From the NCBI GenBank assembly GCA_051047955.1, contig JBPGPT010000001.1, positions 372,001 through 436,000 on the forward strand: 64,000 nt of DNA. The letters are read 5' to 3'. The notes beneath the pieces are model-generated. The model searched no databases and was not told where the DNA came from. It saw nothing but the letters and a program-made list of their open reading frames with translations. This document shows positions 48,554 through 54,400 of this stretch, piece after piece; the first letter of the stretch is position 1, and each line of letters starts with the position of its first letter. Made by a program: the position numbers and the translations under genes. This DNA comes from Cystobasidiomycetes sp. EMM_F5 (Eukaryota).

Positions 48554-50985
48554 ATGCCTTCTGCCATTCATAACCACACAAACGGTCAGGTCCACATGAA
48601 CGGCAAGGCACCCACTATGTCAGTGCCGCCACTGTCACTCGGCTAATTTCAGGGCTGATACTGGACTGTCAATACCTGCGCAGGGAACCATTCAAGACGC
48701 ACAAGAAGATCAGCGACCTGAAATCTAAGGTCGCGACCAAGTCTGGCGCTATCACCATCGATGGCCAGACACTGACGATTGGCGACGTCGTTGCAGTCGC
48801 TCGCCATGGCGCTCGTGCGAGCATCAGCCCTTCGGTACATGCACTCATCGACGAAAGCGTTGCATTCAAGGAGAGCAAGAAGCACACGTCCATCTATGGC
48901 GTCACAACCGGATTCGGTGGCTCCGCAAATACGCGAACAGCAGATACCGTCGCTTTGCAGCAGTCACTTCTTGAGCATCAACTATGCGGCTTTTTGCCCA
49001 CTGATGCTTCGTACGAGAATATGTAAGTCTCTTCAAGTCTCTTCGAAATTTCTGCGTAATCGTGCCCTAATATATAATCATTCGCAGGCTGCAACACGCC
49101 ATGCCAATCCCGATTGTTCGCGGAGCTATGGCCGTCCGCGTCAACTCCTGCGTTCGCGGGCATTCTGGTGTCCGTCTACACGTCCTCCAAGCTATCATTG
49201 ATTTCTTGAATCTCGGTCTCGTGCCCTGCGTCCCTCTCCGTGGCACTATCAGCGCTAGCGGCGATCTTTCACCAGTGAGTACCATTTGAATAACGCTGGT
49301 TGCACATATTGAGTCCGGATTTCCAGCTCTCTTACATTGCAAGCTCAGTCTGCGGTCACCCTGACGTAAAAGTCTTTGACACCCTCGCCAGCCCACCCAC
49401 CGTCCTCTCTGCACCGGAAGTCATTGCAAAATATGGTCTTCCTACTATTGCGCTGACTGCCAAGGAAGGTCTCGGTCTCATCAACGGTACTGCCGTATCT
49501 TGCGCAGCCGGTACCTTGGCTTTGTATGATGCCGAATGTCTGGCTGTCATGTCTCAAACGGCCACCGCTATGACTGTCGAAGCTTGTAAGTACGAAAGAT
49601 TGACCAGGGCATACCCGTCTGACATAATCTTACGCAGTGACTGGACAATCTGGCGCTTTCGATACCTTCATTCACGACGAGGCCCGCCCTCACCCTGGGT
49701 CCATCGAATGCGCTCAGCACATGCGAAGTCTAGTAAGCATGTGCACACAGTTGCTGGTGATGAGTTTGCTGACGCGGGTGTACAGCTCGAAGGCTCGCAA
49801 CTTGCAATCCACGAGGAGGAAGAGCTAGAATTGCACGAAGACGTCGGCATCCTCCGCCAGGATCGCTACGCATTGCGAACTTCCCCTCAGTGGATCGGAC
49901 CTCAACTAGAGCAACTCGCTTTGGCCCGCCAGCAAATTTCCATTGAGCTCAACTCCACCACTGATAATCCCTTGTTCGACATTAAGCGGAATAAGACCCA
50001 TCACACAGGTGCCTTTCAAGCGATGGCTGTCACTTCTGCTATGGATTCCACGCGCATCGCTTTGCAGAACCTCGGCAAACTCGCTTTTGCCCAAGTCACA
50101 GAGCTAGTCAAGTGAGTCATCGTTGATGCAAAGCATTAGTAGGAGCTAACCCTGGGTCGCAGCTGCCAACTCAACCGTGGCCTTCCCTCCAATCTTGCTG
50201 GTAGCGAACCGTCTACAAACTATCATTGCAAGGGTCTCGACATTCACTGCGCAGCTTACTGCTCGGAGCTTGGATTCCTTGCCAACCCAGTCTCTTCCCA
50301 TGTTCAGTCTGCCGAGATGCACAACCAGAGTGTCAACTCTCTCGCCTTCATCTCAGCCCGCAAAACAATCGACGCCAACGAGACCCTCAGCCTTCTTCTA
50401 TCGAGTCAGCTCTACTGCATAATGCAGGCAATTGACTTGCGCATCATGTACAACGACTTCCTCTCGGAAGTACGAAGCTTGCTGGAAGCAACACTTGCCA
50501 AGCACTTTGGTGATTCATTGTCGAAAAGCGCTCTGGTCAATCTGACAAAGGCATGCTATATCACTCTCATCAAGCGGTTGGAGGAGACGTCATCGTCGGA
50601 ATCGTCTGCTCGCTTCGTAGATGCAGCTTCAATGCTCGTTGGCGTAATTGTCGAAGTCCTTTCCACTTCTGATAATCCTTCCGCACTGAAGGCCGTCACC
50701 TCGTGGAGGACGTCGTTTGCAAGTTCAGCGTCTCAACTGTACGTGTCGATGCTGGACGACTGCAACAACGCCGAAAAGCAGGTCACAGCCGCAAAGTCAA
50801 AACTTGGACGCACCTCCTCAGTCTATGAGCTCATCCGAGGAAGTGATGTCAACGTCGCATTCCGCCGTGGCGATGTCGCCCAAGGCAAGTCTGGAAAGAG
50901 TATCGGAAGCTCTGTGAGCTCTATCGTCGAAGCTATGCGGGATGGAAGGTTGGTCGCGGCCGCCGGCAAGGCTTTCATGGCGTGA
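48554..50985 (+). CDS. PAL: Phenylalanine/tyrosine ammonia-lyase (MIO enzyme)
   Basis: SIYGVTTGFGGSA, LLEHQLCG, MIO motif GTISASGDLSP, AKEGLGLINGT, RQDRYALRTSPQW, STTDNP, AEMHNQSVNSLA; several introns. Confidence 0.95.
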
Positions 50986-51465: not shown

Positions 51466-54400
51466 ATGGCGACTCTCGCAGGCAAAGCTCTGCCATGGTC
51501 ATCTAAGGCATACTTGGGACGCTCGTCGCTGACAGCGCGACCCCTCTCGACCTTGCGACAGTCTGGCCGAGTCGCTGAAGCAAAATTTATTGCGGTCAAC
51601 AAGACTGCAAGTTGCCTACATTCGCAGAGCCGTCGAACTCTGTCATACACCTCACACAGGTACGAGGCCCGAGTGGAGTCTGGTACGCTCACCTCACCCT
51701 CCGACCTGGCCCGAAAATTGTCGGAGCAGGTCCTTCCTCGCATACCCCGACCAGACGTCAAGAAGGTCCTGGTAGTTGGATCAGGCGGTCTTTCTATTGG
51801 ACAGGCAGGGGAATTTGATTATTCTGGTACGTCGTTGTGTGATCTCTCCCATAAACATCACACCTCGTCACGCTATGCGACTATCCTTATCGACTCGATC
51901 AATGTCCGATCGCTCGTCGGACGTCTCTTTGCGCTTGATTGCAGAAGATGAATAAAAATATGGAACACATCGCTGCGTTCTTTCTGAGAGCACTTACGCT
52001 CCTGATGGTCTAAAGTGCCGAAAGGTACAAGGATAATTTGCGCCTGAAAATACAATCAATCACCAGCTCGATTATTTACCCCTAGCATCAGCCCTCGAAT
52101 AAGACAACTGACACGCTCATGCTGTTGTAGGTTCCCAAGCTATCAAAGCGTTGCGAGAGTCCAATGTAGAGACTATTCTCATCAATCCGAATGTGAGTGT
52201 TTGCCCGTTCCGCTTTCAGAGACAGATGTCTGAATGTACACTTCCTTACAGATTGCAACGATTCAAACGTCCCATCACCTTGCCTCTGAGGTATACTTCC
52301 TGCCAATCACTGCCGACTATGTGGCATATGTCATTGAACGCGAGCGCCCCGATGGCATTCTCCTAACTTTCGGCGGCCAGTCGGCGCTGAATGTGGGTGT
52401 CCAGCTCGACAAGATGGGTATTCTGGACCGTCTTGGCGTCCAAGTGCTCGGTACACCCATCCGTACTCTCGAGGTGTCCGAAGATCGAGATCTTTTCGTC
52501 AAAGCTTTGAATGAGATCGAAATCCCGGCGGCTCAGTCAACAGCCGTCTCATCCGTCAACGACGCTCTCTCTGCCGCCGAGACTATCGGATACCCAGTCA
52601 TTCTTCGGTCTGCCTATTCTCTCGGTGGACTTGGATCAGGTTTTGCAAACAATCCAGACGAGATGCGCGATCTGGCTGCAAAGTCGCTCTCGCTTTCCCC
52701 GCAGGTCCTTATCGAGAAGTCCATGAAGGGCTGGAAGGAGCTTGAATACGAAGTTGTTCGAGATGCAGCCGACAGTAGGTACAGCAATTGGCAGTGTTGA
52801 GGACAAAAGCTCACATCTGAATGTACAGACGTAATCATTTGTTGCAACATGGAGAACTTTGATCCACTTGGTACACATACAGGCGACTCGATCGTCGTAG
52901 CTCCTTCGCAGACACTTACAGACGATGAATATCACATGCTCCGATCGGCAGCTATCAAAATTGTGCGACATGTCGGTGTAGTTGGCGAATGCAACGTCCA
53001 ATACGCATTGAATCCACACAATCGCGAATACATGGTCATCGAGATGAATGCACGCCTGTCCCGTTCGTCTGCGCTGGCATCCAAGGCGACAGGTTACCCA
53101 CTGGCGTATACCGCCGCCAAGATTGCTCTAGGCTATACTCTACCCGAATTGCCAAACGCCGTCACCAAGACGACGACCGCTTGCTTCGAACCATCGCTAG
53201 ACTACATCGTCACCAAGATTCCGAAATGGGATCTGGCCAAATTCCAGTATGTCAACCGAGAAGTCGGGTCTTCGATGAAGTCTGTCGGAGAAGTCATGGC
53301 TATCGGCCGCAACTTTGAAGAGTCACTGCAGAAGGCTGTTCGACAGGTGGACCCCAAGTTTGCTGGATTCGACGCGTACGTTCAGCCCGAAGACTTGGAT
53401 CACGCACTGTCCGTGCCTACCGATACCCGTCTGTTCGCTGTTGCGTATGCTATGCTCGTCAAGGACTATGATGTTGAAAGGATTTATGAACTGACAAAGA
53501 TTGACCGCTGGTTCCTGTACAAGCTCGACAACATTGTCGTTGCGAACCGCGCATTGAAAGCTGCTGGATCTCTAGCCAACGTCGATGAGCACATGATGCG
53601 CAAAAGCAAGCGATTGGGTTTCTCCGATAAACAAATAGCAGTCTTGGTCAACTCGACGGAGGTCGAAGTCCGAGCGGCACGAAAAGCGATGGGCATTACC
53701 CCCTTTGTCAAGCGTATCGACACGCTTGCTGCGGAGTATCCTGCCGATACAAACTACCTCTTCACGACTTACAACGCTTCAGAGCACGATGTCGCCTTCA
53801 ACGAGCACGGTACGATGGTACTTGGCAGCGGTGTATACCGTATTGGATCGTCGGTCGAATTTGATTGGTGCGCTGTGACATGCGCCCGCAAGATTCGTGC
53901 AGCCGGAAGGAAAGCCATCATGATCAACTACAATCCTGAAACCGTTTCTACCGATTTTGACGAGGCGGACAGGCTGTATTTCGAGGAGCTGGGCTGGGAG
54001 CGTGTCATGGATATCTATGAGCTGGAAGGTTCCGAAGGAGTAGTAGTAAGCGTCGGTGGTCAATTACCGCAAAACATTGCACTTCGTCTGCAAGATAGCG
54101 GTGTCAATGTCCTTGGTACAGATCCCAAGATGATTGACTCTGCCGAAGACCGCCATAAATTCTCGTCTATTCTCGACAAGCACCAGATTGATCAGCCTGA
54201 ATGGGTCGAAGCGACGACGCTGGAGGCAGCTACAGAGTTTGCTGAACGTGTTGGCTACCCTGTTCTCATTCGACCGTCATACGTTCTCTCTGGAGCGGCC
54301 ATGAACGTTGTATGGGACGAGTCAACCCTCACTCACTCGCTCAGTGCTGCTGCCGAAGTGTCGTCAGAATACCCTGCAGTCATCACCAAGTTTATCGATA

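Follow-up and report, generated by a model that had tools for sequence, protein, structure and literature searches.

The first intron of a CPA2-type gene of the arginine pathway raises the question of whether its unusual length is accounted for by a functional box C/D snoRNA and, if so, which ribosomal nucleotides this RNA would modify. We explored this question within the 64-kb window, by which we mean the whole stretch of DNA that was analysed (64,000 nt), taking gene structure, box architecture, guide pairing and known guides of the same sites into account. The candidate sits in intron 1, which had been described as a long intron of 304 nt at 51827–52130. These borders could be confirmed, since the exon joins agree with two comparisons: in the CPA2 homologue of Mixia osmundae (P0006) the translations of exon 1 and exon 2 meet at residues 103/105, and a contig of a relative from run X5 joins exon 1 directly to the exon 2 sequence. 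In the window, the exon 1 translation ends in ..GEFDYS with a split G codon and exon 2 begins with SQAIKALRE, and closely related CPA2 sequences of JGI and Logan origin (P0002–P0005) display 84–89% identity. The neighbouring intron 2 (52193–52251) measures 59 nt, and the roughly fivefold greater length of intron 1 fits an intron that hosts a snoRNA. All features are collected in Table 1.

Table 1. Features of the CPA2-type gene and of the candidate snoRNA in its first intron (window coordinates).
Feature	Position	Strand	Remarks
Exon 1, CPA2-type gene	51466..51826	+	probable start codon to 5' splice site
Intron 1, CPA2-type gene	51827..52130	+	GT..AG, 304 nt
Flanking stem, 5' arm TTGATTG	51935..51941	+	7 nt, 100% complementary to 52053–52059 (inverted-repeat search, pair I3)
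Box C, AAGAUGA	51945..51951	+	off RUGAUGA at position 2; aligns with the Afu_294 C box
Putative D' guide, against 5.8S motif GAAGAACGCAGCGA	51970..51983	+	13 Watson–Crick pairs and 1 G–U; T51979 opposite A43
Box D', CUGA	51984..51987	+	
D'–C' hairpin	51988..52001	+	GAGC 51988–91, 6-nt loop, GCUC 51998–52001; in the centroid fold
Box C', CUGAUGG	52002..52008	+	last base off consensus
Hairpin with GAAA loop	52015..52028	+	5 bp; spacer that separates box C' from the D guide; in MFE and centroid folds
Putative D guide, against 18S motif GCGCAAAUUA(C)CC	52031..52043	+	10 bp, a mismatch and 2 further bp; T52039 opposite A436
Box D, CUGA	52044..52047	+	
Flanking stem, 3' arm CAATCAA	52053..52059	+	pair I3, 7 bp perfect
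Probable branch site of intron 1, CTGAC	52108–52112	+	
Exon 2, CPA2-type gene	52131..52192	+	

The intron displays the arrangement of a box C/D RNA. All four boxes proposed earlier are present in the order C/D'/C'/D, with one correction: position 2 of box C is an A in place of the near-invariant U. Despite this substitution, boxes C and D lie near the 5' and 3' ends with their GA dinucleotides intact, the internal boxes D' and C' frame a 4-bp hairpin, and a perfect 7-bp stem provides the flanking helix of the class. This stem had been claimed as well and stands, albeit offset from the boxes by 3 nt at the 5' side and 5 nt at the 3' side. As intron 1 holds three perfect 7-nt inverted repeats, it is the placement of the flanking stem, not its mere existence, that carries weight. 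The GAGC/GCTC stem between D' and C' and the GAAA-capped hairpin, both part of the original prediction, were likewise recovered in the predicted folds, but an alternative 6-bp pairing of 51990–95 with 52013–18 (pair I8) competes with both. The fold of the whole RNA showed no gain in stability over shuffled sequences (z = −0.03), which is normal for C/D snoRNAs and weighs neither way. In a scan of both strands of the window for boxes plus stem, with criteria chosen post hoc when the candidate had already been seen, this site was the single match, and shuffled sequences yielded a hit with a stem of at least 5 bp in 2 of 200 cases and of at least 7 bp in none of 200. A minus-strand snoRNA in intron 1 was also considered, and this architecture scan revealed none.

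In each of the two putative guides, an antisense stretch of at least 10 nt directly adjoins D' or D and puts the target nucleotide opposite the fifth base upstream of the box. For the D' guide, 51970–51982 is exactly complementary to AAGAACGCAGCGA of 5.8S rRNA, T51983 may add a G–U pair, and T51979, the fifth base upstream of D', pairs with the A named A43. For the D guide, exact complementarity extends over 52034–52043 against GCGCAAAUUA of 18S rRNA, T52039 being the fifth base upstream of D and lying opposite A436. Both registers, including the identification of the latter as the snR87/U16 site, thus correspond to what had been predicted, as judged against short conserved rRNA motifs rather than the rRNA of the source organism; Rfam detected no rRNA gene in the 64-kb window. 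A 20-nt fungal ITS primer, which we take to be ITS3, covers 12 of the 14 bases of the 5.8S target. The primer or the 18S motif is present in 885 papers, with the primer in all ten among the matches listed, and its broad use argues for conservation of the 5.8S target across fungi.

The 5.8S guide followed by D' matched once in the window with up to two mismatches allowed (expected 0.04; 4 of 100 shuffles matched), and the 18S guide followed by D also matched once (expected 0.30), both matches being exact. We calculated −22.9 kcal/mol for the duplex of the D' guide with 5.8S rRNA, a value that 0 of 5000 shuffled guides attained, and −14.8 kcal/mol for the duplex of the D guide with 18S rRNA, attained by 1 of 5000. 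Both energies fall inside the range of mean values accepted for fungal targets, about −13 to −23 kcal/mol according to a fungal survey (PMC5824354).

The A at position 5 of either guide is documented as methylated in other organisms, which supports the reading as guides. The 18S site is listed as Am436, Am484, Am438 and Am432 for yeast, human, Arabidopsis and Dictyostelium, respectively (PMC8817022). The 5.8S site is numbered A43 in yeast and Aspergillus, A42 in Neurospora and A47 in Arabidopsis. Methylation of Arabidopsis A47 was confirmed by RiboMeth-seq, with SnoR9 as guide (PMC8053127), so the equivalent plant mark of the original prediction is real. It is, however, not confined to plants: in Neurospora crassa, primer extension located Am42, for which CD29 is the guide (PMC2780460), and Afu-294 was predicted to guide Am43 in Aspergillus fumigatus (PMC2377427). 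A survey of Trichophyton lists other 5.8S targets, A43 being absent from it. Our literature search on basidiomycete snoRNAs or 5.8S methylation returned nothing specific; a match in a Drosophila preprint concerned Am433 of mt-rRNA and is irrelevant.

The candidate had been called unusual, and this judgement holds for the combination of both guides in one RNA but not for the rarity of the site, for double guides or for intronic hosting. Double guides are frequent among the C/D snoRNAs tabulated in the Neurospora study (PMC2780460), and 45 of 55 Neurospora C/D snoRNAs are intronic in host genes.

Infernal/Rfam searches had been suggested as a check. At gathering thresholds no family was found in the whole 64-kb window. 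With E values up to 10, the region 51780–52180 gave only weak matches to Afu_294 and U83B, and no snR87/U16-type family was among them. The Afu_294 match (RF01506) reached 13.5 bits against a gathering score of 43 (E = 3.9, 40 model positions skipped), while two metagenome loci serving as positive controls for this model scored 79 bits (L014) and 75.4 bits (L036). The alignment covers no more than the C box and the guide to 5.8S rRNA, where it shows the same guide register relative to D' and therefore agrees with the pairing described above.

In line with this alignment, Afu-294 resembles the window RNA in an alignable C box and in its D' guide, which addresses 5.8S Am43 in the same register (PMC2377427). 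The two RNAs differ in most other respects. Afu-294 is about 83 nt long and lies in an intergenic cluster, whereas the window RNA is intronic, and the 5.8S guide of Afu-294 carries a U in place of the C in the window guide, resulting in a G–U pair in Afu-294. The D guide of Afu-294 is predicted to target 26S Cm1851 instead of 18S rRNA (PMC2377427). Accordingly, the D guide ..CACCUUGGAGAA-CUGA of the Afu-294 family is absent here, where the D guide reads GGAUAAUUUGCGC, and CACCTTGGAGAACTGA, common to family members in the metagenome, does not constitute the window D guide either. A likeness in architecture, by description and not by sequence, is found in Neurospora CD29, likewise an intronic double-guide C/D RNA (101 nt), in which the D' guide (14/0) directs 5.8S Am42 but the D guide is directed at Am31 of U2 snRNA and not at 18S rRNA (PMC2780460), which is the predicted partner that explains the D guide of the window RNA. 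In the fungal survey, the CD29 family is reported only from Glomerellales and Neurospora (PMC5824354). For the role of the CD29 D' guide, the Neurospora study gives SnoR9 as the equivalent in plants (PMC2780460); it forms a plant gene family, and no Rfam similarity of the window RNA to it was detected.

A loose metagenome scan for the 5.8S guide followed by a D box returned at least 120 loci, mostly chance matches in unrelated DNA. Among the matches listed, seven resemble Afu-294 (L014, L032, L035, L036, L052, L092 and L120) and two carry the 5.8S guide at box D (L038 and L075). The latter are canonical C/D RNAs of 73–75 nt with 5-bp terminal stems, belong to no Rfam family and share the 5.8S guide TCGCTGCGTTCTT adjoining a CUGA box, but they bear this guide at D rather than D' and their D' guides are unrelated to those of the window RNA. 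Their surroundings also differ, L038 residing in a snoRNA cluster and L075 beside a NAT10/Kre33-type gene, in contrast to CPA2 here. Among these listed matches of the at least 120 loci, none contained the guide to 18S rRNA or a motif of the CPA2 exons, none resembled the intron outside the searched pattern, and none was an orthologue of the CPA2-intron snoRNA. The dual-guide pattern gave 0 matches in contigs of prokaryote genomes, as did the guide plus hairpin pattern in viral contigs.

Among the sequencing runs listed for the locus, all with shares of at most 0.12, there was no RNA run, and X1, X2, X3 and X5 were compared as contigs. In the phyllosphere metagenome X2, one contig matches 51919–52051 with 5 differences and is unlike the window further upstream, and in another the last part of exon 1 is followed directly by 51960–51991, the guide region; both may be taken as weak hints in favour of the snoRNA. 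Contigs of X1, X3 and X5 did not cover it.

We consider it likely that intron 1 encodes a dual-guide box C/D snoRNA of about 105–115 nt, spanning roughly 51941–52052, for 5.8S A43 and 18S A436. The core of this reading is supported by the intron borders, the box layout, the register and strength of the guides and the register of the Afu_294 alignment, and the CPA2-intron RNA as such is a probable genuine snoRNA.

Of the alternatives, the best surviving one retains the snoRNA but restricts function to the D' guide, the 18S match being fortuitous, or redundant with an snR87-family RNA encoded elsewhere that serves A436. In the fungal survey, Microsporidia are the only analysed fungal lineage from which this family (CD_10) is missing, and its A436 guide is placed upstream of D' (PMC5824354); given this near-universal occurrence, a canonical copy may exist in this genome, too. 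The D guide is also the shorter and weaker of the two, with 10 contiguous pairs, and chance produces its pattern more readily than that of the 5.8S guide, with a match at up to two mismatches in 27 of 100 shuffles. Yet a short guide is not disqualifying, as the guide of snR87 itself is among the shortest in yeast (PMC3116282), and the window match, exact and directly adjacent to box D, brings an A that is universally methylated to position 5 and, as described, is nearly unequalled in strength by shuffled guides. Furthermore, Pucciniomycota lack on average 26% of the C/D families detectable by homology, according to the same survey (PMC5824354), which renders a replacement guide for A436 plausible. 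We regard a restriction of function to the D' guide as unlikely.

Still less likely is a non-functional origin, in which a decaying snoRNA relic or a chance assembly of motifs is degraded along with the intron. The missing Rfam family, the C box off consensus, the offset of the flanking stem and the presence of three perfect 7-nt inverted repeats in this intron would all fit such a scenario. The combination of four ordered boxes, a D'–C' hairpin and a flanking stem with two guides that match known methylated sites exactly is, however, far beyond chance, and neither the GA dinucleotides of the C/D boxes nor either guide shows a disabling change. A structured intron element that regulates splicing or expression of CPA2 instead of guiding rRNA modification is hardly credible, its sole point being the location in a regulated metabolic gene, while shuffled sequences reach the same predicted stability and all conserved-looking features are the defining ones of C/D snoRNAs.

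We propose a model in which the dual-guide snoRNA would be synthesised within the CPA2 pre-mRNA and processed along the established route of intronic C/D snoRNAs. The 7-bp stem would juxtapose boxes C and D, allowing Snu13, Nop56, Nop58 and fibrillarin/Nop1 to assemble on the C/D and C'/D' motifs; splicing and debranching, followed by exonuclease trimming, would then leave the protein-protected RNA. Judging from complementarity, the D' guide would pair with 14 nt of 5.8S rRNA and direct fibrillarin to the ribose of A43, and the D guide would engage 10+2 nt of 18S rRNA for methylation at A436.

Methylation of both target sites in other organisms, dual guides and intronic hosting are all known already, and the find is in this respect sound but fairly ordinary; even if it is confirmed, the general understanding of box C/D snoRNAs would be unchanged. 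What is new is the predicted pairing of 5.8S A43 and 18S A436 guides in one RNA and the position of the A436 guide at D. In snR87, U16, AtU16 and CD_10 the guide for this 18S position lies upstream of D', and in CD_10 of Pezizomycotina the D guide is directed at 25S-1042, whereas the D' guide of the window RNA faces 5.8S rRNA (PMC5824354). The lineage is new as well, apparently a Pucciniomycotina-like basidiomycete by CPA2 similarity. According to the fungal survey, which was seeded from ascomycetes, C/D families have apparently been lost in Pucciniomycota (PMC5824354), and the RNA, if confirmed, would represent a snoRNA gene missed by homology-based annotation.

The 5.8S guide is found on different carriers: CD29 combines it with a U2 guide and the Afu-294 family with a 26S guide, L038/L075 bear it at the D box, and in the CPA2 intron it occurs together with the putative 18S A436 guide. 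Tentatively, the 5.8S A43 mark could be ancient, shared by plants, ascomycete moulds and a basidiomycete, with its guide acting as a movable module that repeatedly changed carrier, and the window RNA might even be the sole A436 guide here; we put this forward as a possibility rather than as the expected outcome. If a separate snR87 is absent in the lineage, a single lineage-specific, CPA2-hosted RNA would have become responsible for an 18S methylation that is universally conserved, and the guide supply would be tied to an amino-acid biosynthesis gene for which co-regulation with ribosome synthesis is not known. Confirmation would also provide a clear case of a modification that is kept while its guide shifts between unrelated snoRNA backbones. 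Finally, it would add a basidiomycete to the plants and Pezizomycotina in which 5.8S Am43 is known, which would support the view that the mark arose early and was lost in budding yeast.

In this study, we characterized a candidate snoRNA in the first intron of a CPA2-type gene on the + strand of the Cystobasidiomycetes contig. It displays every defining sequence feature of a box C/D methylation-guide RNA and is, on these features, very likely a genuine snoRNA; its original identification as a dual-guide box C/D snoRNA in a CPA2 intron is thus judged sound. All predicted boxes, the flanking stem, the D'-C' stem and the GAAA-capped hairpin could be located, the stems being checked by a separate inverted-repeat analysis. 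Two boxes deviate from the textbook form: the second base of box C is A where U is expected, and the last base of box C' is G. Because spacers of 3 nt and 5 nt set the flanking stem apart from the boxes, it resembles an external stem of the precursor and not part of the mature RNA. An alternative 6-bp pairing of 51990-51995 with 52013-52018 could compete with both small hairpins, and the fold of the whole RNA is no better than that of shuffled sequence (z = -0.03), which is usual for the box C/D class and counts neither for nor against the snoRNA reading.

Features of the candidate snoRNA, its host intron, the next CPA2 intron and two metagenomic carriers of the same 5.8S guide
Feature	Position	Strand	Details
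Flanking stem, 5' arm	51935-51941	+	TTGATTG
Box C	51945-51951	+	AAGAUGA
D' guide	51970-51983	+	complementary to 5.8S
Box D'	51984-51987	+	CUGA
D'-C' hairpin	51988-51991 / 51998-52001	+	GAGC / GCUC, 4 bp
Box C'	52002-52008	+	CUGAUGG
Spacer hairpin	52015-52028	+	5 bp, GAAA loop
D guide	52031-52043	+	complementary to 18S
Box D	52044-52047	+	CUGA
Flanking stem, 3' arm	52053-52059	+	CAATCAA
Intron 1	51827-52130	+	GT at 51827 to AG at 52130, 304 nt
Next CPA2 intron	52193-52251	+	59 nt
L038 snoRNA	~700-780 of locus	-	canonical 75-nt box C/D, stem GAGGG/CCCTC, C box GUGAUGA
L075 snoRNA	~655-730 of locus	+	73-nt box C/D, stem TCGGC/GCCGA, A43 guide at box D

Both predicted guides proved exact in complementarity and in register. 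Positions 51970-51982 are the exact complement of the 5.8S motif AAGAACGCAGCGA, with T51983 able to add one G-U pair, and T51979, the fifth base upstream of D', lies opposite the fourth base of the motif, the putative target A43. Likewise, the 10 nt at 52034-52043 are the exact complement of the 18S motif GCGCAAAUUA, two further pairs being possible beyond one mismatch, and T52039, the fifth base upstream of D, lies opposite the putative target A436. The predicted duplex energies of -22.9 kcal/mol (5.8S) and -14.8 kcal/mol (18S) were equalled by 0 and 1 of 5000 shuffled guides, respectively. A widely used fungal primer contains 12 of the 14 bases of the 5.8S target, and this wide use suggests that the target is kept across fungi. 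By the standard mechanism, the snoRNP would assemble on the nascent intron, aided by the flanking stem, the RNA would be freed through splicing, debranching and exonucleolytic trimming, and fibrillarin would then methylate the rRNA nucleotide paired with the fifth guide position.

Chance assembly of these elements is dismissed by all controls together. Allowing up to two mismatches, the 5.8S guide with D' occurs once in the window versus 0.04 expected (4 of 100 shuffles), and the 18S guide pattern with D once versus 0.30 (27 of 100); both real matches are exact. A guide-independent scan for the box order GATGA..CTGA..TGATG..CTGA, flanked by a stem of at least 5 bp and covering both strands, returned the candidate as sole site, while block shuffles gave any match in 2 of 200 cases and a match with a 7-bp stem in 0 of 200, a scan that is somewhat generous since its criteria were chosen after the candidate was known.

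The long downstream exon of the host gene is recognised by the model of the carbamoyl-phosphate synthase large subunit (TIGR01369, 1079.5 bits, cut-off 1027), and the closest named relatives of the protein carry the annotation CPA2 (arginine-specific large chain). The translations of exons 1 and 2 align to residues 27-103 and 105-124 of the Mixia osmundae homologue, with a split glycine codon at the junction corresponding to residue 104, and in a relative's contig (run X5) exon 1 continues straight into DNA coding SQAIKALKEE. The contrast in length noted earlier between intron 1 and its neighbour was confirmed. In exon 1, at 51466-51750 (+), about 90 residues precede the conserved enzyme start VLVVGSGG, the first 47 having no counterpart in the Mixia alignment. 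Mitochondrial arginine-specific CPSases of filamentous fungi have an organelle-targeting extension, and the N-terminal extension seen here may be a candidate for such a function. At 52775-52828 relatives' contigs skip 54-91 nt, one skip having GT..AG ends (52774 to 52829); this is a further short CPA2 intron, either missing from several relatives or spliced out in them. Directly upstream of CPA2, positions 50143-50982 (+) encode the C-terminal portion of an aromatic amino acid lyase (PF00221, 85.2 bits). Red yeasts have phenylalanine ammonia-lyase genes of this type, and its presence would fit a Pucciniomycotina origin.

The closest named CPA2 relatives are Pucciniomycotina (Mixia 81%; Rhodosporidiobolus, Sporobolomyces, Rhodotorula and rusts 78-81%), and environmental proteins reach 84-89%. 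By this similarity, the organism is probably a Pucciniomycotina basidiomycete without a close named genome. Two contigs of the phyllosphere metagenome X2 give weak hints of conservation of the candidate: one of 151 nt matches 51919-52051 with five differences and no gaps, sequence upstream of the match being unlike the window, and a second runs from where exon 1 ends into 51960-51991, an extent estimated from depth bins. A 151-nt X2 contig is identical to 52067-52217 (intron and exon), so that the same or a near-identical organism occurs on leaf surfaces. No orthologue of the RNA was found in the prokaryote genome contigs and viral contigs searched.

Both guide specificities are already known. 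In Neurospora crassa, primer extension placed a methylation at the equivalent 5.8S site (Am42), whose guide has plant snoR9 listed as counterpart (PMC2780460), and Arabidopsis A47, guided by SnoR9, is reported as confirmed by RiboMeth-seq (PMC8053127). Am43 is also a predicted target, besides 26S Cm1851, of Aspergillus fumigatus Afu-294, an 85-nt RNA encoded in an intergenic cluster (PMC2377427). The original view of a 5.8S guide in a fungus as remarkable did not survive this Neurospora and Aspergillus literature. The 18S site is conserved as Am436 (yeast snR87), Am484 (human U16), Am438 (AtU16) and Am432 (Dictyostelium) (PMC8817022).

The proposed Rfam check yielded no family at gathering thresholds; in a permissive search Afu_294 came best at 13.5 bits (cut-off 43), skipping 40 model positions and aligning only box C and the 5.8S guide. 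We therefore rejected membership in Afu_294 or in CD_10, the snR87 family, given the failed score test and the differing partner guides and guide positions. The D guide of Afu-294 is predicted to target 26S Cm1851, whereas that of the candidate would target 18S A436, and CD_10 is described with its A436 guide upstream of D', with a 25S target at D in Pezizomycotina (PMC5824354), while the candidate carries it upstream of D. Intronic N. crassa CD29 shares the 5.8S site at D' but directs its D element to U2 Am31 (PMC2780460); with these differing partner guides, no link to the candidate was seen. Double guides are frequent in the Neurospora snoRNA table (PMC2780460). The candidate is a new gene, pairing two known guide specificities in a previously undescribed way in a poorly surveyed lineage, and does not represent a new type of system. 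The fungal survey describes tracing basidiomycete snoRNAs solely via homology to ascomycete seeds, with several Pucciniomycota apparently missing, on average, 26% of C/D families (PMC5824354); a lineage-specific RNA such as the candidate would consequently go undetected.

A loose metagenome scan for the 5.8S guide beside a D-type box matched at least 120 loci. Among the matches listed, at least seven on fungal-looking contigs carry Afu-294-type RNAs, L014 and L036 confirmed at 79 and 75.4 bits and L032, L035, L052, L092 and L120 assigned by eye; all have the U variant of the 5.8S guide as well as a D guide that ends in CACCTTGGAGAA-CTGA. Two further listed loci, L038 and L075, encode compact C/D RNAs (73-75 nt) that carry the candidate's 5.8S guide at box D and reach the threshold of no Rfam family. 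The L038 RNA has CUGA at both D' and D, and its locus looks like a snoRNA cluster, since a second C/D-like unit follows ~40 nt downstream. Directly upstream of the L075 RNA lies an ORF with a PF13725 tRNA-binding domain, a domain of NAT10/Kre33-type ribosome-biogenesis proteins. The remaining listed matches look like chance, and the 18S guide, the CPA2 exon motif and intron similarity beyond the pattern were absent among the 120 listed. Including the published cases, one 5.8S guide thus has at least four different carriers, which suggests that the modification persisted as its guide moved from one backbone to another.
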